The translations under genes and the position numbers were made by a program. The notes under the pieces were generated by a model. That model was not told the origin of the DNA, made no database searches, and saw only the letters and a program-made list of their open reading frames with translations. Shown one piece after another: positions 3,044 to 60,642 of a stretch of DNA of 64,000 nucleotides. Each line of letters begins with the position of its first letter. Position 1 is the first letter of the stretch. This stretch comes from Bacteriovoracia bacterium (GTDB lineage: Bacteria > Bdellovibrionota > Bacteriovoracia > Bacteriovoracales > Bacteriovoracaceae), in contig JBKHVI010000001.1 of assembly GCA_046570105.1 (NCBI GenBank), positions 71,230-135,229 of the forward strand, read 5' to 3'.

Positions 3044-3838
3044 ATGCGCGCACAAGACAGATCAAATCTCGTTAAGGTCGGCATCTTTGTTACATCCTTA
3101 ACTATCGTGCTAGCGATCATGATTACCGCCATCGGGAAAGAGTCCTCGATGTTTAGTCCTAAGGCGATCATCAAAGCGCGCGTAATCAACGCAGAAAATC
3201 TCAAAGTCGGCTCTACCGTTGAGCTAAGAGGTCTTCGTATCGGCCATGTGGAAGAAATTAGAATTGTGGGCTACCAGTCTGTAGAAATTCTCATCAATAT
3301 CATCGCTGAAAACTTGCGCTGGATTCGTAAAGACAGCAAAGTCGCTATCAGCAATGCTGGTTTGGTGGGTGACAAGTATCTTGAGATTCAGGGAGGCACT
3401 GAGGAAGGCGGAGACTTTAACCCCGAGTCTGATGTACTGCTGTCAGAGCCTAGCCTCGACTTCAAAGCTATTGCCACTAAAGGTGGCAACATTGCAGACA
3501 AAGCAGATCGCGTCCTCGACAAATTAGAATTGATGTTAGTAGCGATAGATGCCAAGAAACTTGCCGTGACCGTCGATGGACTCGCTAAGACTGCCGACAA
3601 TCTTGGAAAAGCTACTGGCCCTTTAGTTGCAACTTCTAAAAAGCTCGAAAGTGCTTCAGAGCGCTTTGATGCTGTCATGACTCGTGTGCAGAAAGGCCCC
3701 GGCACCGCTCACTCGCTCGTTTATGACGATGGTCTTTACGAAGATCTGCGCAAACTGATGGGCGGTGCTGAACGCAACTCCATTATCAAGTACTTCATCC
3801 GCGAATCAATTAAGAAGGCCCCGCCCAAAGAAGACTAA
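3044..3838 (+). CDS. mlaD: MlaD/MCE-family substrate-binding protein
   Basis: It has an N-terminal TM anchor, then an MCE-like fold signature (VGSTVELRGLRIGHVEEI, AGLVGDKYLEI). It is the third gene of the mlaEFD arrangement. Confidence 0.8.
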   Translation: MRAQDRSNLVKVGIFVTSLTIVLAIMITAIGKESSMFSPKAIIKARVINAENLKVGSTVELRGLRIGHVEEIRIVGYQSVEILINIIAENLRWIRKDSKVAISNAGLVGDKYLEIQGGTEEGGDFNPESDVLLSEPSLDFKAIATKGGNIADKADRVLDKLELMLVAIDAKKLAVTVDGLAKTADNLGKATGPLVATSKKLESASERFDAVMTRVQKGPGTAHSLVYDDGLYEDLRKLMGGAERNSIIKYFIRESIKKAPPKED

Positions 3839-3860
3839 AAGGTGTCACTCACCTTTTGGC
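3837..3860. repeat. REP-like palindromic element, copy 1 (AAAAGGTG-TCACT-CACCTTTT GGC)
   Basis: This 24-nt string is identical to 54226-54249. It has an 8-bp stem and 5-nt loop and starts inside the mlaD stop codon. Confidence 0.55.
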
Positions 3861-4294: not shown

Positions 4295-4975
4295 TTACTC
4301 GCCTCTTTCTTGTACTAACCCCGACGAACCGAGCCACTGAAAGAAGGCAGCAACGGCTTCTTGATCTTCGGGTGCATGTTCCAACGCAAGCCCGAGGCCA
4401 AAAGGTAGCGCCTTTAAAACATCTTCTTCCCAACGTGTGAGTCGACGAAAATGCAACCCCGACTCTTTCATCCAAAAAAGGATTCTTTGCGAAGCATGGT
4501 CACCAATTTCTTGTGTTTGATAAAGCTCCATCACTGGATATGAAAATTCCTGGATATCTAACGGGGCCAACACTAACTTCGTTTCTTCATCCATAGAAGG
4601 CAATGGCAGCACTTTGAGTCGTTCATGCGTCCAAGGATGAATCTCCATCGCCCATTCAAAGCGCGCGAGCTCGCACGTTGCCAAATCCTTTTCATTGCCC
4701 ATTATGAATTGCAAAAAAACTTCACCGAAAAAATCCAACGAGCGTGGTGAGTGAGGTTTAGATTCCCAGAAACTTGTCCATAAACTCTCCCACTTCTCCC
4801 CCATATGAATCTTGGTTTGGGGAAAAGTCTCTTCAATGGCTTCTCTAATTTTTGATTGGTGCTGATAGCGATAATGCTCAAGCGCAATCTGTGCACTGGC
4901 ACTCTTGGCCCCGATTAAATCAAGCGTTGGGTTCTCGCCTTTCATCCCGAGTTTAAATTGCTCAAACCAATTCAT
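4295..4975 (-). CDS. DUF2063-family RiPP maturase partner (BufC/HvfC/MbnC-like)
   Basis: The 226-aa protein has a DUF2063-like N-terminus (LEHYRYQHQSKIREAIEETFPQT, PRSLDFFGEVFLQF). Its ATG overlaps the stop of the upstream DUF692 gene (ATGA). Confidence 0.75.
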   Translation of the reverse strand: MNWFEQFKLGMKGENPTLDLIGAKSASAQIALEHYRYQHQSKIREAIEETFPQTKIHMGEKWESLWTSFWESKPHSPRSLDFFGEVFLQFIMGNEKDLATCELARFEWAMEIHPWTHERLKVLPLPSMDEETKLVLAPLDIQEFSYPVMELYQTQEIGDHASQRILFWMKESGLHFRRLTRWEEDVLKALPFGLGLALEHAPEDQEAVAAFFQWLGSSGLVQERGE

Positions 4976-5766
4976 ACCGACCTCTGCAGTTTCAGTGCTT
5001 GATCAAGAATGGGTTTGACTTCATCGAAGTTGGGAATATCCGCATCCCACTCAATCATAAAGGGAATATCGTTTCTGCGCTTACAAGCCTCAGACCACAA
5101 CTGCCAGGTTTTCTCATGAGGCGGCTTAGAATGGGTATCAATGACAAAATGCTCGCCTTCGCTGAAACCAGCTAAATGCACTTGGGCCACTTTAGTGAGA
5201 TTAAGATGATTAAGCTCTTGAATGGGATCAATACCAAAGTTAATGGCATTGACGATCATATTATTCACATCGAGTAGAATCTGGCAGTCAGTGCGCCGAC
5301 AGAGTTCTGCTAGAAATACATATTCAGTCATTTCATTTTTATTTGTTGTTATATAAGCGGAAAGATTCTCTAAGATAAGCGGACGCTTGAGTGTGTCCTG
5401 CCACTTGAGAACCTTCTTAGTAATTAATTTGAGATTTTCTTCTGTATAGGGAAACGGCAATAGGTCATGCCAATGATGACCGCCAAGAGAGGACCAGCAG
5501 AGATGATCCGAAATACGTTCTGGTTGAAATTCATCTGCAAAAACTTTGAGTTCTTGCAGATATTTTTTGTCATGTTCTTCAGGTGCTGCCAGTGAGAGCG
5601 AAACTCCGTGAAATGAGAGCTCGTAATTCTCGCGCAGCTTACGCAGTGTTTGGCGACGAGTGCCTTTATCCCAAAGATAATTTTCGGTGATAATCTCAAG
5701 CCACCCGATCTCCGCGTGGCCTTCAATTAAGGCATCAAAAAATGGGGCCCGGAAACCGAGCCCCAT
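4972..5766 (-). CDS. MNIO (multinuclear non-heme iron oxidative enzyme, DUF692/UPF0276; MbnB/BufB/HvfB-like)
   Basis: Characteristic DUF692 motifs are present: GLGFRAPF, FHGVSLSLA, ISDHLCW, LILENLSAY, LLDVNNMIVNAINFG, QVHLAGF, VIDTHSKP. I chose the start at ATG 5766, 7 nt after the precursor stop. The track N-terminal extension to 6000 overlaps the precursor gene in another frame. Confidence 0.85.
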   Translation of the reverse strand: MGLGFRAPFFDALIEGHAEIGWLEIITENYLWDKGTRRQTLRKLRENYELSFHGVSLSLAAPEEHDKKYLQELKVFADEFQPERISDHLCWSSLGGHHWHDLLPFPYTEENLKLITKKVLKWQDTLKRPLILENLSAYITTNKNEMTEYVFLAELCRRTDCQILLDVNNMIVNAINFGIDPIQELNHLNLTKVAQVHLAGFSEGEHFVIDTHSKPPHEKTWQLWSEACKRRNDIPFMIEWDADIPNFDEVKPILDQALKLQRSV

Positions 5767-5773
5767 GGTTTTA

Positions 5774-6034
5774 CTAGCCGCAGCCATTAGCGCCGCAACC
5801 GTTCTTTTCTTCTTTACCGTCTTTCTTCTTACCTTCAGCAGTTTTGCAAGCATTCTTGCCGTCTTTTGACTTGCACGAGTGCTTACCATCTTTTGATTTG
5901 CAAGAGTTCTTGCCTTGGCAACCAGCTTTCCCTTCTTCTGTTTTCTTTTCGTCATGGTTATGTGCCAAAGCACCCTGACTTCCCAAAAGCATTCCCGCAA
6001 CTGCCACTGACATTAACAACTTTGAATTTTTCAT
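5774..6034 (-). CDS. RiPP precursor peptide: Sec signal peptide plus Lys/Cys-rich core (bufferin/HvfA-like class)
   Basis: The 86-aa ORF has SD GGAGGGG 7 nt upstream and the signal MKNSKLLMSVAVAGMLLGSQGALA. The core HNHDEKK...GCGANGCG carries 6 Cys and an SCKSKDGK(H/N)xC tandem repeat. It lies immediately upstream of the MNIO gene. Confidence 0.75.
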   Translation of the reverse strand: MKNSKLLMSVAVAGMLLGSQGALAHNHDEKKTEEGKAGCQGKNSCKSKDGKHSCKSKDGKNACKTAEGKKKDGKEEKNGCGANGCG

Positions 6035-44460: not shown

Positions 44461-44931
44461 ATGTCCGATCCTTTTTTCCGAATTGTTCTGCATGCGCCTG
44501 AGATTCCCGGTAATACCGGGAGTATCGGGCGCACTTGCGTTGCACTTAATGCTGAACTCATCCTCATTAAGCCTTATGGTTTTGACATCAGCGAAAAAGC
44601 CGTTCGAAGAGCTGGCTTAGATTACTGGAAGCACGTCAAAATCAAAGAGTACGACAATTGGGAACATTTTTTAGCCAGTGAAAAACCACCGCGAGACCAA
44701 ATCATGTTGTTTGAAAAAGGCGAAGGCAAAGCCTGGCACTCAGCCCCCTACAAAAAAGGATCCTACTTAGTTTTTGGTGGTGAAACGCGAGGTATCCCCG
44801 ATCGAATTCTGCAAGACATGCCAGATAACTTTTATAGTTTTCCCCAGTACTCCCCGCACATTCGCTCGTTGAATTTGGCCAACATCGCAACGGCTGCGGC
44901 CTACGAATGTTTGCGACAAATTAATCATTAG
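44461..44931 (+). CDS. trmL: tRNA (cytidine/uridine-2'-O-)-methyltransferase TrmL (SpoU family)
   Basis: The 156-aa protein has HAPEIPGNTGSIGRTC, VFGGETRGIP and SLNLANIATAAAYE. Confidence 0.85.
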   Translation: MSDPFFRIVLHAPEIPGNTGSIGRTCVALNAELILIKPYGFDISEKAVRRAGLDYWKHVKIKEYDNWEHFLASEKPPRDQIMLFEKGEGKAWHSAPYKKGSYLVFGGETRGIPDRILQDMPDNFYSFPQYSPHIRSLNLANIATAAAYECLRQINH

Positions 44932-49568: not shown

Positions 49569-49988
49569 GTGAAACCTTATGTCGGGCTCCTCTGCGCCCT
49601 AATAGCAGGCTGTCATCAAACTCACCCATTGAAGGGGATAAAGGACATTCGTCCCGGCAGCACTTCTTTGCAGGAAGCCTTATTAATACTCGAAGATCCA
49701 GAGCGGGTGATGAATAACGAAACTCAACCCGGAACACAGATCTTTCATTGGGAAGAGTTCTCTCTACAAATTGACCATAAAATTGTTGAAGCGATCTTTC
49801 GAAATCCAACGGCCAATGAAACCTCATTTCTCTATTGGCGACATGCTTACCGACAAAACCACACTCAATTAAAAAAAATCAAAAATACAAGTCATTGGCA
49901 ATTCACAGTCCCTCAAGCTGGTCTTGCTGTCATCTATGATGAAGAACTTGATCTTGTGACAAAGGTTGTACGTTATGAAGCACCCTAA
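49569..49988 (+). CDS. small lipoprotein, hypothetical
   Basis: It has a GTG start and the lipobox LLCALIAGCH. It overlaps the start of the next ORF. Confidence 0.5.
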   Translation: MKPYVGLLCALIAGCHQTHPLKGIKDIRPGSTSLQEALLILEDPERVMNNETQPGTQIFHWEEFSLQIDHKIVEAIFRNPTANETSFLYWRHAYRQNHTQLKKIKNTSHWQFTVPQAGLAVIYDEELDLVTKVVRYEAP

Positions 49989-52338
49989 TCAGTGGCTGAG
50001 ACTCGCAACCGTTTTATGGAAGTTTAATTGGAGAAAAAATCCAAACTTAAAATTCATAACTTTCTTTGCTGCTGCCATATTGTTGTTCAGTGCTCTCAAG
50101 CATTTTGATCACCCATCTTCCAAAAAAACGTCGTGGCATACCACTTATTGGCAATTACCACATATAGATTCTGCTCGAATGCCTGCTTCAGGAGAAGAGT
50201 GTTCACCAAATACTCCCAAGCTAGATGATCTTCAAAGAGAAAATAAAAAGCTAAATCATCTTAAGAGCCATTCTATAAAAGGTTTTTGGCTGCATTTTAA
50301 TTTAGCAAAATTAAGTTTTGCTGAGGCACGCTTTCTTTCATTTTTCCCTGCTGCTCCTCTCCTTCCAGTAGCGCAACAACTCAAGACTTGCGTCGACATC
50401 CCTTGTCTCTTTAATCAGCTATCGCAAGATCAAAGTGGTGAATACGGAGAGCTGGCATGGAACTTCTATCTTAAAACAGGCATCGCACTTCAATGGAAAG
50501 ACGGCGAAAACTCATTTAATAAAAATGAACTGCAACTTCTGTGGCAACTAGCTTCGCAACTACCCACTTCATTCTTGCATCAAACAAAATTAAGACAGCT
50601 GAGTAAGTCTCCGCTGCGCGAAGGGGTTTGCTTCAATACGCACAACTCTGTGGTCGAATTATCGACTCAGTGTTTAACTCTTGAATCAACGGCAGTAGAG
50701 ACAAAGAAGATTATTGTCGCTGGCATGGCCGATGCTCTTTATTCTCAACTAAAAATGCCTGAACAATCTCAGTTCTCTTGGCAAAAGAATACTTGGAAAG
50801 AATTGACTCAAGATCGAAAGGCTTTTGCTCAACAAGTAGCTCAGTATATCGTTCAATTTGAAGCCGCTCCGGAATTGCATTCCTACTTTAAAGAAACACT
50901 TTTTAAACGTGATTGGTCTCTCGCCGGAGAGATGCATCGAATGTTCAAAAAAGATCAGTGGCTTTGGCGAGACATAAAAAATCGTCATCTTAACGACTGC
51001 CTAGATTTACACAAGTCCGCTCTGTTTGAAAAAAAATCACCAAGAGGCATTGCCTCATTATCAGAGCCACATCCAATAGCTGTTTGCTTGAGAGAAACTG
51101 CGCAACAAGATTTTTTAAAAAACAGACGCCAATGGTTAAGCCAAGAGAATCCACGTCACTGTGAGTGGCTAAGTTCTTTGCCTTCGGGAGCTGTACCAGT
51201 CGATGAATACATCCATCATTGGGAAAAATTACTGACGAGAGATATAGATCAACTTGAATGGCGCTTGAGAGCAGAAGGGCCTTCGTGGCTGGCACAGCAT
51301 ATCAAAAAAGAAGTTGTACTCGCAAAAATGGATCCCACTTGGGTTTATTTTCAATGTCATGCTTCACAAAATCCCAAGGGATGTTACGAGCAAGGACTCA
51401 CTAATCTTGTGCGAGAGCAGGAGCGTGGCCCTGCTTCAGAAAAAGAAGAATGGCTTAACGACTATCCATTTGAATCACTCGAAGAAAGAGTGAACGAGGA
51501 TGTAGGTATAAAGCGTCAGTGGTTTTTAAGTCACATTGAAGAGGACGCAGAAAAGGCTTGGAGTCATTGTTGGCGGCAAGGGCCAAATGAGATGGTACTT
51601 TTAAAATCATCTCCACAATGGATTAGCTCAGGCGCTGAATATGTCGATGGGAAATTCGCTACTTGCTTGGAAAATGCTTCCGCAAGACTTGTGAGTCAGA
51701 TTATTAAAGATAATTCACCCGAGTCGCTATTTTGGCTAAAAGAGCTCAAATCACCACTAAAAGACTGGTGGAAAAAGAAAATTCAAACCGAAGCAAATAA
51801 AGAACGCTCATGGCTTCTGCAGCAATCTGAACTAATTAAATCTAATCTTTCACAAGACTTGCTAAGTCAGTTGAAAGGTCACCAGAATTTTAGCGTCAAC
51901 GCTCAATGCTTAAATCGCTTATCTTATCATTATCCTACTCGCATGTACTTCCACGAGCGTCGACAACTCAATCAAAATTTTGGTGTGCGACTTTGTAAAG
52001 AAGTACTCGCAACGGTTTCTATGAAGAAAGCGGTTGGCTCTTATAAAAAAATGCGATGGAACAACTTCGGAAGCGAATTAACCACACAGTTGCTTACTCG
52101 CTGGGAAGATCGTACGCGACGTTTTTGTTTTGGTCGAATTCCTGCACAAGAGATAAGAGATCTCATCGAGACGGAAAAGATGAAAGGATGCATGAGAGAG
52201 CAATTCGATCTCTCTAGGCCGGAAGCCTCAACAGAAGTCACACAAAAGTTTTCGCTACCAGAGGACAGTCTTGATGAATTCAAAGACGAAGTCATCACCA
52301 TAGCTGAAGCCTCACTTTTAGACCAATTACAGAAATGA
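49975..52338 (+). CDS. large hypothetical protein (about 787 aa) with N-terminal TM anchor
   Basis: The long ORF has coding-like composition, and FITFFAAAILLFSAL looks like a TM segment. I recognised no family. Its stop overlaps the rlmC-like start. Confidence 0.55.
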   Translation: MKHPNQWLRLATVLWKFNWRKNPNLKFITFFAAAILLFSALKHFDHPSSKKTSWHTTYWQLPHIDSARMPASGEECSPNTPKLDDLQRENKKLNHLKSHSIKGFWLHFNLAKLSFAEARFLSFFPAAPLLPVAQQLKTCVDIPCLFNQLSQDQSGEYGELAWNFYLKTGIALQWKDGENSFNKNELQLLWQLASQLPTSFLHQTKLRQLSKSPLREGVCFNTHNSVVELSTQCLTLESTAVETKKIIVAGMADALYSQLKMPEQSQFSWQKNTWKELTQDRKAFAQQVAQYIVQFEAAPELHSYFKETLFKRDWSLAGEMHRMFKKDQWLWRDIKNRHLNDCLDLHKSALFEKKSPRGIASLSEPHPIAVCLRETAQQDFLKNRRQWLSQENPRHCEWLSSLPSGAVPVDEYIHHWEKLLTRDIDQLEWRLRAEGPSWLAQHIKKEVVLAKMDPTWVYFQCHASQNPKGCYEQGLTNLVREQERGPASEKEEWLNDYPFESLEERVNEDVGIKRQWFLSHIEEDAEKAWSHCWRQGPNEMVLLKSSPQWISSGAEYVDGKFATCLENASARLVSQIIKDNSPESLFWLKELKSPLKDWWKKKIQTEANKERSWLLQQSELIKSNLSQDLLSQLKGHQNFSVNAQCLNRLSYHYPTRMYFHERRQLNQNFGVRLCKEVLATVSMKKAVGSYKKMRWNNFGSELTTQLLTRWEDRTRRFCFGRIPAQEIRDLIETEKMKGCMREQFDLSRPEASTEVTQKFSLPEDSLDEFKDEVITIAEASLLDQLQK

Positions 52339-54221: not shown

Positions 54222-54255
54222 GGCCAAAAGGTGTCACTCACCTTTTGGCCTTTTT
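54222..54255 (+). terminator. rho-independent terminator, also REP-like element copy 2
   Basis: GGCCAAAAGGTG-TCACT-CACCTTTTGGCC (12-bp stem) is followed by T5. The core is identical to 3837-3860. Confidence 0.7.
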
Positions 54256-54860
54256 AATGTCTCGAACAGTTTAATTTTCTTTTTATTAATATCAAACTGC
54301 CAACGTCTCAGCCCCTTGCGAATAATCGCTTCACCTTCATTTTCAATTCTCTCATTCAGCCACAGCAACTCGGCTGCCTCTCCACCTAACTCCATATTCA
54401 CTCGACTATGTAATGGAAACGGCACTCGCGAAGTGAGTGTTGAATAAGGATAGAATTCCACTCTTTCAACCATCCGCGCACGTAATGGATTTTGGTAAAT
54501 ATAGCGATAGACTTGATAATAATAAGCCTGATTCTCAATCAAGCTCCATTTATAGCGTCCTCCCCACAAATGATTTGTTCCATCAGCCTTTCTCATAATT
54601 TTCACGGCCGTATTTCGCATCAATAGATGCATCACCTGATCTAGATTACATCGCGGCGTTTGAACCAACAGATGGAAGTGATTATCCATCAAGACAAATG
54701 CATGAATACAAATCCCAAAGCGCTCTTGAACATTTTTAAGTTCATCGACAAAAATTTTCCAAACCTCGTTCATCTCAATCGGATAGAACTGCTTGTCATT
54801 CGTTCGAGCTGTTACGTGGTAGGTATGAATATCACTGCGAATCAAAGCATTTCTCGGCAT
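54234..54860 (-). CDS. Y1 HUH transposase-like protein (IS200-like/REP-associated tyrosine transposase family)
   Basis: The HUH motif is DNHFHLLVQT and the catalytic Tyr context is YRYIYQNPLRARMV. The 208-aa gene has no tnpB partner, and its last codons lie inside the REP-like hairpin. Confidence 0.8.
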   Translation of the reverse strand: MPRNALIRSDIHTYHVTARTNDKQFYPIEMNEVWKIFVDELKNVQERFGICIHAFVLMDNHFHLLVQTPRCNLDQVMHLLMRNTAVKIMRKADGTNHLWGGRYKWSLIENQAYYYQVYRYIYQNPLRARMVERVEFYPYSTLTSRVPFPLHSRVNMELGGEAAELLWLNERIENEGEAIIRKGLRRWQFDINKKKIKLFETLKRPKGE

Positions 54861-54928
54861 AATTACTCCTTGTAACCCGTTACCTCTTGGCGCTTTTTTG
54901 CAGCACCAAGCGGTGTTAAAATTAAAAC

Positions 54929-55129
54929 GGGAAGGAGTAAGCCTGAGGGATTCCCCCCAGACCTAGGTGCTTGTGACACCAAGAGGTTCACAGAGAACGT
55001 GGAACTGACAAAACATGGAGCGTGAGCATGCCCCTTCCCGCCTCTCTTGTTGCAAAAAGACGGGAAATTTTCCGAACACTAACTATTGAATTTTCAACAG
55101 GAGTCGTCTCACTGCGTGAGAGATTTTTT
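54929..55129 (+). ncRNA. candidate structured sRNA, copy A (~201 nt)
   Basis: The extended -10-like TGTTAAAAT (54914-54922) lies 6 nt upstream of GGGAAGG. The closing stem pairs GGGAAGGAG with CCCCTTCCC (55031-55039). The terminator-like TCTCAC-TGC-GTGAGA is followed by T6 ending at 55129. Confidence 0.4.
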
Positions 55130-55205
55130 CCACTCACATGTCCGTTTTTTACCCGCGACTTGTTGGAGATGGATGAGACTTACTTCGAGTGATAAAATTA
55201 AAAAA

Positions 55206-55406
55206 GGGAAGAGGTAAGCCTTGAGAGATTCCTCTCAAGACCCAGGTGTGAGCACACCAAGAGGTTTAAAAAGAACATTGAACTGGCAGAGCGGTGAACT
55301 TGAGCTACCTCTTCCCGCCTCTCTTGGTGCAAAGAGACGGGAAAATTTCTACGACTCAACTATTCAAAAAAATTCATCCATCACTTCACTGCGTGAGAGA
55401 TTTTTT
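55206..55406 (+). ncRNA. candidate structured sRNA, copy B (~201 nt)
   Basis: TGATAAAAT (55190-55198) lies upstream. An 11-bp closing stem pairs GGGAAGAGGTA (55206-55216) with TACCTCTTCCC (55306-55316). The perfect hairpin CTTGAGAG-ATTC-CTCTCAAG is present. The T6 run is at 55401-55406. Confidence 0.4.
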
Positions 55407-55480
55407 CCAATCACTTGTCCGATTTTTACCCGCGACTTGTTGGCGATAGATGAGAGTTCAATCAAGTGATAAAATAAAAA

Positions 55481-55681
55481 GGGAAGGAGTGGGCCTGAAT
55501 TATTTAATTCAACCCCAGGGTGCTGTCACACCCAAGGGGTTCACCTGAACTTGGAGCTGGATGAACGTGGAGCGTGGACCTGCCCCTTCCCGCCTCTCTT
55601 GGTGCAAAGAGACGGGAAAATTTCTACGACTCAACTATTCAAAAAAATTCATCCATCACTTCACTGCGTGAGAGATTTTTT
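55481..55681 (+). ncRNA. candidate structured sRNA, copy C (~201 nt)
   Basis: TGATAAAAT (55467-55475) lies upstream. The closing stem pairs GGGAAGGAG with CCCCTTCCC (55583-55591). The hairpins are TGAATTA..TAATTCA and GGGTG-CTGTCA-CACCC. The T6 run is at 55676-55681. Confidence 0.4.
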
Positions 55682-55800
55682 CCACTCACATGTCCGATTT
55701 TTACCCGCGACCTGTTGGAGATTGATGAGAGCTGGAAGAAAATAATTGGCACTAATTCAATAAAGAACTTTCTCGTATCTCACACACATAAAAACTAAAA

Positions 55801-55997
55801 AGCCGAACGTAATTGATGTAACTACGTCCGGCTCTTCTATGACGTCCAATGAAGGACGCCTTTACCAAAAGGAAATTCATGGAAGAGTTAGCGCGGGTTC
55901 TGATCCTCGTTATCTTGACGATACAGCTTGCTGTATTGCTCAAGATAATTTGATCGGATTTAGAGGGAGGGGAAAGCAGCCTCTCCCTCACCGTTTT
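55801..55997 (+). ncRNA. candidate highly structured RNA unrelated to the three repeats (~200 nt)
   Basis: The first hairpin pairs AGCCGAACGTA with TACGTCCGGCT. A long-range stem pairs CTCTTCTATG (55832-41) with CATGGAAGAG (55878-87). A 9-bp stem pairs TTATCTTGA (55910-18) with TCAAGATAA (55940-48). The 10-bp terminator-like stem GAGGGAGGGG/CCTCTCCCTC (55963-55989) precedes TTTT. Confidence 0.3.
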
Positions 55998-56051
55998 AAC
56001 TTCCAATCCTCAAATTCAGCATAGCTCTATTTGAATAAGCGAATCAAACTT

Positions 56052-56084
56052 AAAAAAAAGGCCCGGGTTAAACCCAGGCCTTTT
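56052..56084. terminator. bidirectional rho-independent terminator (serves the minus-strand porin gene)
   Basis: The order is A8, GGCCCGGG-TTAAA-CCCAGGCC (7 of 8 bp paired), then T4. Confidence 0.65.
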
Positions 56085-56102
56085 CTACCTAAAAGTGTAC
56101 CT

Positions 56103-56122
56103 AAAAGTGCATGACACCTTTT
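56103..56122. repeat. degenerate third copy of the REP-like hairpin (AAAAGTG-CATGA-CACCTTTT)
   Basis: Seen directly, just downstream of the porin stop. A tandem ACCTAAAAGTG duplication precedes it. Confidence 0.3.
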
Positions 56123-56129
56123 GGAAATT

Positions 56130-57365
56130 TTAGAACTTGTAAGTCATAGCGACGCGAGCGAGTAGACGGTTTGAATTCAAGATTCCGTTACTTGGTGCTG
56201 TGTTATTGGTCGCAGTAGCAGCCGAAGTCATCAGCAATCCGTCGATAGCGAAATCACCAAACTTCAAAGTAGCACCTGAACGGACAGATGTTGTATTCGC
56301 TTTGGTACGCTTCTTGTCTGGGTTCTGAGCGACAACGTTTGTGTTAACCAATGGCAATAGGTCTTCATCGTAGTCGTTGTCTTGCTCATTGATTATACTC
56401 TGAGAGATTGAACCACGAAGAGTCAGCCATGAAGCAGCGTCCACTTCTAAACCAACTACGACTGGAACAGCGTAATCATCAATCGTTGCTTTGCCGTCAT
56501 CTTTGGTATCAAGCTCACGCTTGTTCAACACATAAGATACTTTATAGAACAAAGTCGCTTTGTCGTTAAGCTTAGTCTCGCGACCGTAACCCACGATAAA
56601 ACGATCAGTTTGCGCATCAGCTTCACCTGTATAAGCAGGAGCTGCAGCTGTCGTTGCAACTTGAGAGACAGAACTCTCTTGTTCCCAAGCAGCGTGGCGC
56701 CAGAAAGCAAATACGCTTGCCTGATTGTCGATACGGTATGTTCCACCTAATTCGTAACCAAGCTTACCCTTGAATTCTTCTTTATCCCCTGCACCTGCAT
56801 CAAGATCGCCCTCGAAAGAGTTGATCAATGAAACGTTAGCAAAAGCTTCAAACTTGCCAGCGATAACACCTAGACGAGCTGATAACGTCTGGCTCTCAAG
56901 ATCTTCGAATGTGCCATCTGTATCATCTTTGTTTTGTGAATAAGTAAGGTTTGCTCCCCACTTAACTGAAGACTCTCCAGCTAAGAAAAGATCAAGCTGG
57001 TTATCTTGATGAATCACTCGGCGGTTTGTGACCAAGTAGCCGCGTGCTTCGTTTACAGAAGCAGATTCGCCACCGAAGTAAGCACCAGCGACCATGTTGT
57101 TCCAGCCGTAAAGAACACCACCCTCAGCCTGTGGATTATTATTGGCGTCAGCTTTAGTTCCCGCGGCGCCATCACCACCCAATTCAAAGATCGCAGTATC
57201 TTTGTAATTGTTAGCATGAGCTGAGTTGAGGAAAATATTACGATTATCGTTAATGTACTGTGAGCCACCGATATCTTCGCCTAAAGCGACGAGACGTGCT
57301 TTGGTTGCGAACGCCGGAGTCGCGAGGACTGCCAAGGCTGCTCCAAGAACAAGATGCTTTTTCAT
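56130..57365 (-). CDS. outer-membrane beta-barrel porin-like protein (paralog 1)
   Basis: The signal peptide is MKKHLVLGAALAVLATPAFA. It has an alternating beta-strand pattern and a C-terminal MTYKF. It is a paralog of the next gene. Confidence 0.7.
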   Translation of the reverse strand: MKKHLVLGAALAVLATPAFATKARLVALGEDIGGSQYINDNRNIFLNSAHANNYKDTAIFELGGDGAAGTKADANNNPQAEGGVLYGWNNMVAGAYFGGESASVNEARGYLVTNRRVIHQDNQLDLFLAGESSVKWGANLTYSQNKDDTDGTFEDLESQTLSARLGVIAGKFEAFANVSLINSFEGDLDAGAGDKEEFKGKLGYELGGTYRIDNQASVFAFWRHAAWEQESSVSQVATTAAAPAYTGEADAQTDRFIVGYGRETKLNDKATLFYKVSYVLNKRELDTKDDGKATIDDYAVPVVVGLEVDAASWLTLRGSISQSIINEQDNDYDEDLLPLVNTNVVAQNPDKKRTKANTTSVRSGATLKFGDFAIDGLLMTSAATATNNTAPSNGILNSNRLLARVAMTYKF

Positions 57366-57441: not shown

Positions 57442-58581
57442 TTAGAAACGGTAAGTCATTGATACGCGAGTCATCAAGTTAGATGAATCGATTTCACCAG
57501 CTGTACCGCTTGCAGTGTTACCGATCATACCGTCGACAGCCATATCGCCGAACTTCAAAGAAGCACCAGCAGCTACTACAGTTGTGTTAGCTTCTGTGTT
57601 CTTGTTTGAGTCAGAGTTAGCAACTGCTGCTTTAGTTTCAACTTCGTTGATCAAGATTTCTTGAGAAACTGAACCACGAAGAGTCAACCAAGAAGCTGCG
57701 TCGAACTCAAGACCGATAGTCGCAGACAAATCGCTTTCGTTATTTTCGCCATCTTCTCCAGCATCCTTAACATCGCTAGTTGTATTTGTGTATGCAACTT
57801 TTGTGAAAAGAACTGCTTTGTCATTCAACTTGTCTTGGCGAGCAACACCCAAAGACATTTCGTTTGATTCAACGTTATTATCGCCGTCAACTTCAAACTC
57901 ATTCATTCCGTAATAACCGAAAGCAGTGTAGCCGTTCCAGCTGTAAGAACCACCAATTTCAGTATCACCTTTGCGCTCTACTTCTACGTCTTGATCTTTA
58001 TGATCTGTCTTACCTGTGATGCCGTACTTCAAGTAAGCAGCCCATGGGCCCTGGCTAAGACCAACTGCAAGATCCATAACATCTGTCTTAGCTTCTGTGT
58101 TTGTAGCAAGACCAGCACCGCCGTCACCAGCATTGAAGTCATCATTCTTCTGTGATGAGTAAGTCAACTGAACGCCCCACTTGATACCAGCGTCGCCGCC
58201 GATGAAAAGATCAAGTGCGTTTGTTGCTTGATAAACGAATAGGTCACCAGCATCAACATCACCATCATCGTTAGCGTCTGTTGCAAAAGAATCAGTACCT
58301 TCGTTGTAAGAAAGATTGCGGCCCATGTGTGCGCCCCAAACCAAGTTACCAGCGTTACGGATGAATCCACCTTCGCCGTTTCCGCCGTCATTTTCTAATT
58401 CGTAAGTAACGAAATCTTTTTGGTTATTAACTTCAGACGCGTTAAGGAAGATGTTACGGTTATCTTGGATGTAGAATGAACCGTTAGTATCTTCACCCAA
58501 AGCTGCCAAACGAGCTTTAGATGCGAATGCAGGAGCAGCTAGTACAGCCAATCCAGCGGCGAGAGCGAGTTGCTTTTTCAT
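57442..58581 (-). CDS. outer-membrane beta-barrel porin-like protein (paralog 2)
   Basis: ATG 58581 has GGAGAT upstream. The signal peptide is MKKQLALAAGLAVLAAPAFA. It shares KARLxALGED...DNRNIFLN and WLTLRGS motifs with paralog 1 and ends in MTYRF. Confidence 0.7.
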   Translation of the reverse strand: MKKQLALAAGLAVLAAPAFASKARLAALGEDTNGSFYIQDNRNIFLNASEVNNQKDFVTYELENDGGNGEGGFIRNAGNLVWGAHMGRNLSYNEGTDSFATDANDDGDVDAGDLFVYQATNALDLFIGGDAGIKWGVQLTYSSQKNDDFNAGDGGAGLATNTEAKTDVMDLAVGLSQGPWAAYLKYGITGKTDHKDQDVEVERKGDTEIGGSYSWNGYTAFGYYGMNEFEVDGDNNVESNEMSLGVARQDKLNDKAVLFTKVAYTNTTSDVKDAGEDGENNESDLSATIGLEFDAASWLTLRGSVSQEILINEVETKAAVANSDSNKNTEANTTVVAAGASLKFGDMAVDGMIGNTASGTAGEIDSSNLMTRVSMTYRF

Positions 58582-58732
58582 GAAATCTCCTTGTTTCAAA
58601 ATGACGTTGGTCATTCCTAAATTAAGCAAACAAATAACTTTATACGTTAAGTGTGTAAGTGTTCTTTCTTTTTGGCAATACTGTTTTTGTTGGTTGCATT
58701 TTGCATAGGGGCAAACTCATTGGTCCTATCAA

Positions 58733-60562: not shown

Positions 60563-60572
60563 ACCCCCATTA

Positions 60573-60618
60573 TATACAGGTGTATAAAAAAGTCACTTCC
60601 ATTTTATACATGTGTATC
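60573..60618. promoter_or_regulatory. two related palindromes, TATACA-GG-TGTATA and TATACA-TG-TGTAT, 32 bp apart in the ATPase promoter region
   Basis: Seen directly. The first overlaps a minus-strand TATAAT (60574-60569) located just upstream of the GTG start. Confidence 0.35.
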
Positions 60619-60642
60619 AAACGGGGGACACCTCTCAAAGTT

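Follow-up and report, generated by a model that had tools for sequence, protein, structure and literature searches.

A 64,000-nucleotide stretch of the genome of a Bacteriovoracia bacterium (GenBank assembly GCA_046570105.1, contig JBKHVI010000001.1, positions 71,230 to 135,229), referred to here as the window, was found to contain a tandem array of three units next to a gene encoding a Y1 transposase. The explanation that we favour, with moderate confidence, is that the units are three paralogous genes of an undescribed family of structured small RNAs, situated in a Bacteriovoracaceae module that consists of a REP-associated tyrosine transposase (RAYT) gene and its repetitive extragenic palindromes (REPs). 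The evidence comes from a 111-nt folded domain with compensatory base changes, from promoter-like and terminator-like signals on the plus strand, and from the presence of the same domain beside orthologs of the Y1 gene in other lineages of the family. On the signals in the sequence, it is quite likely that the units are independently transcribed structured RNA genes, and the involvement of the RNA with the transposase is a separate and more tentative proposal that is considered below.

The array was located at 54913–55730 by Tandem Repeats Finder, with a period of 275, 3.0 copies and 80 % matches. It lies in a 1269-bp gap (54861–56129), longer than any other interval of the window that lacks an open reading frame (ORF) of at least 110 aa, and it adjoins the 208-aa Y1_Tnp gene, which is on the minus strand at 54234–54860 and divergent from the array. 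All three units read on the plus strand, with cores beginning at 54929 (unit A), 55206 (unit B) and 55481 (unit C), and no further copies are present in the 64-kb window. Unit A (54914–55129), delimited from sequence, fold, a terminator scan and a covariance-model match of 109 bits, contains an extended -10 sequence TGTTAAAAT at 54914–54922 that ends 6 nt before GGG, a 5′ domain of 111 nt with helices P1–P4 at 54929–55039, a hairpin (H5) at 55035–55066 and a terminator-like stem at 55107–55121 followed by T6 at 55124–55129. Upstream of its promoter, at 54876–54893, is the remnant of a REP arm, CCGTTACCTCTTGGCGC, that matches the 3′ arm CACCTTTTGG of the REP.

Unit B (55151–55406), for which sequence, fold and a covariance-model match of 92.5 bits were used, has the same components in the same order. 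A REP-arm-like sequence ACCCGCGACTTGTTGGAG at 55151–55168 is followed by the -10 box TGATAAAAT (55190–55198, ending 7 nt before GGG), the 5′ domain (55206–55316), H5 (55312–55343) and a weak stem, then T6 at 55401–55406. In unit C (55428–55681), identified in the same way and matching the model at 103.9 bits, the REP-arm-like element is at 55428–55445, the -10 box, again TGATAAAAT, is at 55467–55475 and ends 5 nt before GGG, the 5′ domain is at 55481–55591, H5 at 55587–55618, and a weak stem precedes T6 at 55676–55681. A fourth REP-arm-like element, ACCCGCGACCTGTTGGAG, together with the end of the repeat, was found at 55703–55730 from the sequence and Tandem Repeats Finder, and the array stops there, just short of the position for a fourth -10 box. 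The original prediction, made from the sequence of the window, had placed three tandem units in the largest non-coding gap and a TGnTAAAAT element 5–7 nt upstream of GGGAAG in each of them, and both the repeat analysis with the ORF gap measurement and the spacings of 6, 7 and 5 nt agree with it.

The 111-nt segment runs from GGGAAG to CTTCCC and its ends pair with each other, forming a closing stem of 9–11 bp in units A–C. In units A and C this stem is made by GGGAAGGAG and CCCCTTCCC with one A–C mismatch, and in unit B, where both strands have changed relative to unit A, GGGAAGAGGTA and TACCTCTTCCC pair at 11 of 11 positions. The first internal hairpin is CTGAGGG-ATTC-CCCCCAG with one mismatch in unit A, CTTGAGAG-ATTC-CTCTCAAG with 8 of 8 positions paired in unit B, and TGAATT-ATTT-AATTCA in unit C; the second pairs GGTG with CACC (A), GGTGT with ACACC (B) and GGGTG with CACCC (C). 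A closing stem with paired changes in copy B (11 of 11 bp) and two internal hairpins that differ in sequence but remain complementary had been claimed from the window alone. All were recovered in A, B and C, and the compensatory changes on which that claim was built were also seen in homologs from other genomes.

Comparison of 12 unique sequences revealed the helices common to all of them, namely P1 (7 bp) with an extension, P1b, followed by P2 and P3. P2 is a hairpin of 6–8 bp with free sequence and a U-rich loop, and P3 has the form CCY-AGGUG...CACC-AAG-RGG. The 40 nt past P3 are conserved in sequence and include the single-stranded motifs GARCUG and GAGCGUGAGC. Within this conserved segment a further helix, P4, is proposed tentatively; it is weak, with 3–7 bp (UCAC/GUGA, UUAA/UUGA or CGUGUA/UACAUG), and encloses both motifs. 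In the window and in two of the loci with homologs (L004 and L005; loci are given L numbers), H5 shares 5 nt, UUCCC, with the 3′ strand of P1.

The fold is supported by covariation, as assessed in the 12 unique, related sequences from seven lineages using an alignment fitted to the model. Thirteen of the 19 pairs called by RNAalifold have changed on both sides. In our own 24-pair structure, 88.4 % of cells are paired compared with 73.4 % in column shuffles, and only 45–58 % are paired in slid controls in which the partners were moved by 1–3 columns. Changes on both sides were found at 14 pairs of this structure, a number reached in none of 500 shuffles (0/500). The sequence of P1 illustrates this, with GGGAAGGAG/CCCCUUCCC in the window replaced by GGGGGAGGG/CCCUCCCCC in L017 and by AGGAAGGG/CCCUUCCU in Peredibacter.

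Judged by conservation, the functional part of the unit is the 5′ domain, which is 66–83 % identical between lineages, compared with about 50 % (effectively unrelated) for the 3′ half. The order is reversed within an array, where the 5′ domains are 66–78 % identical and the 3′ halves 77–88 %. The sequence comparisons show that an array's spacers and 3′ halves undergo concerted evolution, and the constant 3′ half, which the original prediction had read as a sign of selection, is an effect internal to the array. The 5′ domain of unit A is 83 % identical to the single copy in L004 but only 75 % to that of unit B and 71 % to that of unit C. Similarly, unit a of Peredibacter starrii groups with unit a of the other Peredibacter species (81 %), and unit b with unit b (89 %). 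This indicates that the paralogs are old and have been kept distinct, an unusual course of evolution in which old, distinct 5′ domains sit within spacers that evolve in concert.

Several signals point to transcription of the units from the plus strand, and we consider it reasonably likely that the product is a plus-strand RNA, predicted to be made as separate RNAs of approximately 150–200 nt. A hexamer of the form TAnnnT (TAAAAT, TAAACT, TAAGAT, TAGAAT or TATATA) was found to end 5–8 nt before P1 in all 12 of the unique copies, and it is preceded by TGn in 5 of the 5 copies belonging to the window's own clade. The presence of a -10-like box at the right distance in 12/12 copies supports independent transcription of the plus strand. 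At the other end of unit A, the terminator scan detected a plus-strand terminator-like hairpin with T6 (55107–55129), and in L004 a GC-rich stem with U6 lies straight after P1 and forms a strong terminator at about 150 nt. The 3′ half also includes the hairpin CCCGCCTCTCTTGGTGCAAAGAGACGGG, of which there are three copies in the window and none in shuffled sequence, and TCACTGCGTGAGAGATTTTTTCCA, with three exact occurrences in the window. From the earlier description of this half, the hairpin, the sequence shared by the units and the T6 run ending about 201 nt past GGG all stand, but the terminator-like stem was scored in unit A only. Immediately before the array, at 55797–55837, there is a strong terminator on the minus strand, which makes it less likely that upstream transcription continues through the array to the Y1 gene.

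The neighbouring Y1 protein was found to belong to Pfam family Y1_Tnp (E 1e-9). Its best NCBIfam match is NF047646, the REP-associated tyrosine transposases, at 77.2 bits against a cut-off of 80, and the IS200 match scores 24.6 bits. The best solved structure is that of Escherichia coli TnpArep (4ER8), with which the protein aligns at both its HUH (hfhllv) and its tyrosine (YIYxNP) motifs. A database search recovered 228 relatives at 50–95 % identity, the named ones being from Bacteriovoracaceae or Peredibacter, and the gene is single-copy in each locus and complete genome examined. The gene therefore shows the features by which RAYTs are recognised, with an HUH fold, a catalytic tyrosine, a closer relationship to TnpArep than to the TnpA of IS200, and REPs on its flanks.

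The REP palindrome GGCCAAAAGGTG-TCACT-CACCTTTTGGCC was found at 54222–54250, where it overlaps the 3′ end of the Y1 gene, and its 12-nt arms are 100 % complementary; a second copy is at 3833–3860. On the far side, the block made up of the Y1 gene and the array is closed by an imperfect palindrome of REP type, CCTAAAAGTGCATGACACCTTTTGG, at 56098–56125, adjoining the terminator of a porin gene (56054–56086), and the equivalent place in L005 is occupied by a perfect REP. A REP family with the form AAAAGGTR-N5-YACCTTTT surrounds the Y1 orthologs in L005, L008, L017, L058 and L059. The presence of a RAYT-like gene with a flanking REP family identifies the locus as a RAYT/REP system. REP sequence also precedes the individual units; the TTGG of the arm is 24 nt before the -10 box in unit A and 24–26 nt before it in all homologs, and the 3′ arm found at each unit is CACCTTTTGGAC in Peredibacter and ACCTCTTGGCGC and ACTTGTTGGAG in the window. 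A full REP palindrome replaces the arm in L017 and in the second unit of L008. The true REP of this clade is a separate, dispersed palindrome of 25–29 nt. REP palindromes were most abundant in two loci without the RNA, L059 (five copies) and L058 (three), and the full palindrome is absent from the Peredibacter loci, which have two to three copies of the RNA.

Homologs of the 111-nt domain were obtained from contigs with Y1 orthologs. In six other Bacteriovoracaceae lineages the domain was found upstream of the Y1 ortholog, on the opposite strand, in one to three copies. There is one copy in L004, in L005, in L017/L018 and in L060/L061, where an ORF6N gene lies between the domain and the Y1 gene, and there are two tandem copies in Peredibacter sp. 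HCB2-198 (L009) and three in P. starrii and a P. starrii-like genome (L010/L024). In the P. starrii genome (CP139487.1) the array occupies about 747.4–748.3 kb, corresponding to 5137–5941 of L010. A covariance model (R1) built from 11 copies gave scores of 80–113 bits for the homologs and no other match in approximately 200 kb of loci. Many contigs with a Y1 ortholog end about 300 bp upstream of the gene, as would be expected if repeats are situated there.

The genes around these loci differ. The flanking genes are a tRNA methyltransferase and a porin in the window and L005, an acyl-CoA dehydrogenase and a UDP-glucose dehydrogenase in Peredibacter, a histidine kinase in L017, and ORF6N, BrnA and cyclase genes in L060. 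Across these differing neighbourhoods the only constant neighbour of the 111-nt element is the Y1 gene, and this points to either functional coupling or co-mobility. Co-occurrence with the Y1 gene, which the original prediction had suggested checking, was found in seven lineages, counting that of the window, but it is incomplete, with L003 and L058 lacking the element and L059 having only a stub of it. In L060 (4508–5627), the ORF6N-domain gene abuts the RAYT ortholog, and the block is surrounded by toxin-antitoxin genes of the BrnT/BrnA and Phd types.

The element appears not to be dispersed in the sequence examined. A metagenome scan that was independent of Y1 employed a pattern for the P3/J core, which fits three of the seven RNA-bearing lineages and, in the window, unit A only. 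It returned 39 loci, 38 of which were chance matches in GC-rich coding sequence; the sole true locus was the L024 array, found as one locus in the 500-kb contig of the P. starrii-like genome. When a genome collection was scanned with a 22-base pattern for the 3′ hairpin, GCCTCTCTTGNTGCAAANAGACGG, only a chance match in Yoonia was found, and this hairpin is lineage-specific. In a viral collection there was no match for the two DNA patterns or for the Y1 protein.

If the units are RNA genes of a RAYT/REP module, each would begin with the REP-arm remnant, with the extended -10 sequence 24 nt further on, transcription starting at or just before GGGAAG, and the 111-nt domain at the 5′ end of the transcript. 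The 3′ part would consist of H5, an A/U-rich linker, and a hairpin leading into the T run. The conserved 111-nt domain may then be a protein-binding scaffold, for which the likeliest partner would be the RAYT, an enzyme that recognises hairpins and is the product of the sole constantly linked gene. The RNA could modulate the activity or expression of the RAYT, for example as a hairpin decoy or a cofactor. The tandem copies presumably arose by duplication of REP-bounded units and, if the RAYT is the partner, its specificity might vary with the paralog that it uses, or the paralogs might determine how active it is on REPs. That the RNA works with or on the RAYT at all is a possibility we put forward tentatively and regard as rather unlikely. 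The more specific version, in which the RAYT has the 111-nt RNA as its dedicated partner, which would be the first RNA cofactor, decoy or regulator of a Y1/HUH enzyme to be described, is doubtful.

A number of findings weigh against this explanation. No -35 element was found and a strict sigma-70 scan gave no promoter, the stem before T6 is weak in units B and C, the scan scoring that of unit A only, and there is no clear terminator in the Peredibacter copies. Folding energies are equally good on both strands (z -1.2 to -4.6 for each), and about 12 G–U pairs on the plus strand are balanced by A–C mismatches, which are G–U pairs on the minus strand. Because energies and wobble counts are symmetric, structure alone cannot tell a plus-strand RNA from a minus-strand RNA or from single-stranded DNA (ssDNA), and the call of the strand comes from the promoter and terminator signals only. 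The covariation was observed in just 12 unique sequences from seven lineages, and P3 does not co-vary with the REP of each lineage. The homolog search started from Y1, so that the association with this gene is biased by design. In addition, a covariance-model search with filters off found no full copy of the 111-nt element in L003, L008, L058 or L059. Of these loci, L059 retains just a P1-like stub (4912–4938), and in L008 the position is taken by a structured element of another kind. The existence of Y1 orthologs without the 111-nt RNA indicates that the RAYT does not strictly require it.

The best-surviving alternative is that the units encode ordinary trans-acting small RNAs (sRNAs) with no tie to the RAYT, the linkage being historical and due to a shared REP-flanked cassette. 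The promoter and terminator layout would be the same as in the explanation we favour, and the Y1 orthologs without the RNA, the failure of P3 to track the lineage REP and the A/U-rich 3′ part, which is typical of chaperone-bound sRNAs, are all consistent with it. Tandem multi-copy sRNA genes are also common in bacteria (PrrF1/2, LhrC1–4 and Qrr are examples), and that commonness counts in its favour. However, the pairing with Y1 persists across at least four gene neighbourhoods and the conserved part is a large folded domain rather than an exposed seed. Complementarity between the array and the window was also at chance level (28 shared 11-mers against about 27 expected from a length/4^11 estimate). 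On this evidence we regard such unconnected sRNAs as unlikely, while giving them more weight than any other alternative.

It is also conceivable that the structure acts at the level of ssDNA, as a composite element derived from REPs that the neighbouring HUH/Y1 enzyme recognises or uses as a substrate, in the manner of REPIN/BIME clusters or integron attC sites, with the copies being RAYT products. Enzymes of this type act on ssDNA hairpins, as is the case for IS608 TnpA and E. coli TnpArep (4ER8), and at this locus the block has REP palindromes on its flanks and each unit has a REP arm in front of it. The equal stability of the fold on both strands, the symmetric wobble counts and the resemblance of the P3 core, AGGTG...CACC, to the REP stem of the window would also follow. 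Against this, the true REP is dispersed but the element appears not to be, with one locus in 64 kb of the window and one in the 500-kb contig. Its long-range closing stem, multi-helix core of 92 nt and conserved unpaired motifs are unlike known hairpins formed by REPs or by REPINs (two inverted REPs in one long hairpin), and a substrate would not account for a -10-like hexamer at the distance of a transcription start in all copies or for T runs after hairpins on the same strand. An ssDNA role is therefore improbable.

If the minus strand is transcribed instead, the array could belong to the 5′ untranslated region of the RAYT mRNA and act in cis as a structured leader, for attenuation or autoregulation. 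The element is always upstream of Y1 (of an ORF6N-Y1 operon in L060), 60–70 nt from the start codon, and folds on the minus strand are as stable as those on the plus strand. P1 of units A and C and of the L004 and L005 copies is uninterrupted on that strand, where the A–C mismatch becomes G–U, and in the window a U-rich run follows P1. That run, which is the minus-strand reading of the -10-like A/T element, is however absent from L004, L005 and L017, where the -10 box can still be read on the plus strand. There is no promoter-like site upstream on the minus strand, the strong terminator at 55797–55837 stands before the array, the T6 and U6 terminators are on the plus strand, and it would be unusual for a leader to be 600–900 nt long and to consist of three repeated units. 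A leader of the RAYT mRNA is accordingly harder still to sustain than a role as ssDNA, and its probability is low.

In each of the three units an uninterrupted ORF of about 55 codons spans the 3′ half, and ORFs at 55022–55192, 55221–55469 and 55574–55798 share one reading frame. Differences between units A and B are spread over the codon positions as 14/12/11, and the changed codons include 3 that are synonymous and 20 that are non-synonymous. The frame is broken by stop codons in most homologs, including the units in L005, L017, L060 and Peredibacter, and the ORF in the 3′ half has no conserved start codon or ribosome-binding site. A small protein was rejected because of the even spread and the stop codons, and these same counts and broken frames are in line with the earlier view of the sequence as constrained by structure and non-coding. 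A recent functionless tandem duplication, the other way to dispense with an RNA, conflicts with the compensatory changes across genera and with paralogs that predate species splits, and we give very little credence to either.

Other candidates were also rejected. No Rfam 15 family matched anywhere in the window at the gathering thresholds and, when E values up to 10 were allowed for 54700–56100, the sole match inside the array was a 17-bit chance match to a microRNA, which is consistent with the original statement that the units resemble no familiar Rfam family. ARAGORN found no tRNA or tmRNA in the window, and blastn in a distant mode gave no match to plasmids or phages. The literature searched held nothing relevant on RAYTs or tyrosine transposases together with non-coding RNA (ncRNA), or on RNAs of Bdellovibrio or Bacteriovoracaceae. 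A riboswitch or other plus-strand leader was discounted because the downstream gene is missing or inconsistent. In the window and L005 no plus-strand gene lies past the element and the next gene is convergent, and elsewhere the co-directional next gene varies (a 253-aa protein of unknown function, an acyl-CoA dehydrogenase or a cyclase). Guide-like complementarity was dismissed on the 11-mer count given above. The idea that P3 is a REP mimic failed because P3 keeps AGGUG/CACC, the REP stem is AGGTA/TACCT in most lineages, and the two do not co-vary. The motif TGGCAC-N5-TTGG in Peredibacter could be read as a sigma-54 promoter, but its spacing does not fit and the window lacks it.

Further structures were observed in and around these loci. 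In L008, the different element consists of two tandem units of about 105 nt (5565–5947, minus strand), divergent from the RAYT ortholog, with a REP and a -10 box upstream and with fold z values of -4.2 and -4.6. The first hairpin of this element has the loop AAUUC and differs between the two units by compensatory changes, and the Y1 locus may host several RNA types. In the window, an 18-bp hairpin followed by a U-run was found on the minus strand at 55797–55858 (fold z -6.7). L003 has kept the 7-bp hairpin that precedes it, with a compensatory change (GACGTCC/GGACGCC versus GACGCCC/GGGCGCC). A second small transcript of the minus strand may have its 3′ end in this region, between the porin terminator and the array. 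A GC-rich hairpin at 55962–55991, GAGGGAGGGG...CCTCTCCCTC, resembles the P1 stem alone, with a weak model match (E 0.27), and is similar to the P1-only stub in L059; it may be a decayed copy.

The genes neighbouring the array in the window encode PopA-family porins, a tRNA methyltransferase and proteins of unknown function. PopA-family porins are typical of Bdellovibrio-like organisms. Beside the array are two similar tandem ORFs on the minus strand (56130–57365 and 57442–58629), each followed by a strong terminator; the first matches the PopA porin-like outer-membrane family and the second has no Pfam match. An ORF of 790 aa on the plus strand (49966–52338), also with no Pfam match, is upstream of a tRNA (uracil-5-)-methyltransferase-like gene and overlaps its start. 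Long inverted repeats were found at 60564–60627 (26-nt arms, 81 % complementary) and 44493–44533 (20-nt arms, 85 % complementary).

RAYTs are widespread, single-copy and vertically inherited relatives of IS200, and their role and persistence are debated (PMC3116915; bioRxiv 10.1101/2021.07.10.451892). A structured RNA that travels with a RAYT across gene neighbourhoods was not described in Rfam or in the literature searched. If the RNA does work with the enzyme, the transposase families with RNA partners, now TnpB, IscB and IS110, would extend to HUH/Y1, and the RAYT, RNA and REP would form a three-part system offering an experimental handle on the long retention of RAYTs. Should it have no connection with the RAYT, the element would still represent a new, covariation-supported class of RNA in the predatory Bacteriovoracaceae. 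As P. starrii is cultivable and has a complete genome, the proposal is directly testable.

The locus is like known RAYT/REP/REPIN systems in having a single-copy RAYT-like gene, a flanking REP family and a REP arm before each unit, and the 111-nt element flanks a RAYT in all seven lineages. The element itself lacks the size and palindromic form of these repeats. A REP is a palindrome of 20–40 nt and a REPIN is two of them, inverted, in one long hairpin, whereas the element is a multi-helix structure of 111 nt with conserved unpaired motifs and with signals for a promoter and a terminator, and in the sequence examined it occurs at the RAYT locus only. Integron attC sites also form arrays in which the sequence diverges and a single-strand fold is kept, but here an integrase is lacking, the units are not separated by gene cassettes, and they have promoter and terminator signals.

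Small RNAs encoded opposite the 5′ end of transposase genes are known from IS10 (RNA-OUT), IS200 (art200) and ISPpu9 (Asr9) (PMC8450116). The RNA predicted here is likewise encoded on the opposite strand at the 5′ end of a transposase gene. Unlike those antisense RNAs, it would run away from the gene, with its start 68 nt upstream of the Y1 start codon, overlapping neither the ribosome-binding site nor the ORF, and the selection on its structure does not depend on antisense pairing. In their layout, the units are closest to the PrrF1/PrrF2, LhrC1–4 and Qrr sRNAs, which are also head-to-tail paralogs with a copy number that varies by species, and which have promoters and terminators of their own, as is predicted for the units. 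Those sRNAs are short with conserved single-stranded seeds, but in this case a large fold is conserved and the paralogs differ mainly in paired regions.

The omega RNAs of TnpB and IscB (IS200/IS605, HEARO) and the bridge or seek RNAs of IS110/IS1111 are, like the element, structured RNAs of 100–200 nt that adjoin a gene of a transposase family, and the element resembles them both in being conserved together with such a gene and in having a conserved scaffold with variable segments. There are differences, as no TnpB, IscB or IS110 gene is adjacent and no Rfam match to those RNA families was obtained. The element is divergent from the gene with its own predicted promoter, rather than being derived from a transposon end or untranslated region, and its variable P2 is base-paired with no obvious guide. 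To our knowledge, no RNA partner of a Y1/HUH enzyme has been reported. From these comparisons, the element would be most like the transposase-linked structured ncRNAs, namely the omega and bridge RNAs, in its working, and most like tandem paralogs of the PrrF1/2 type in its layout.

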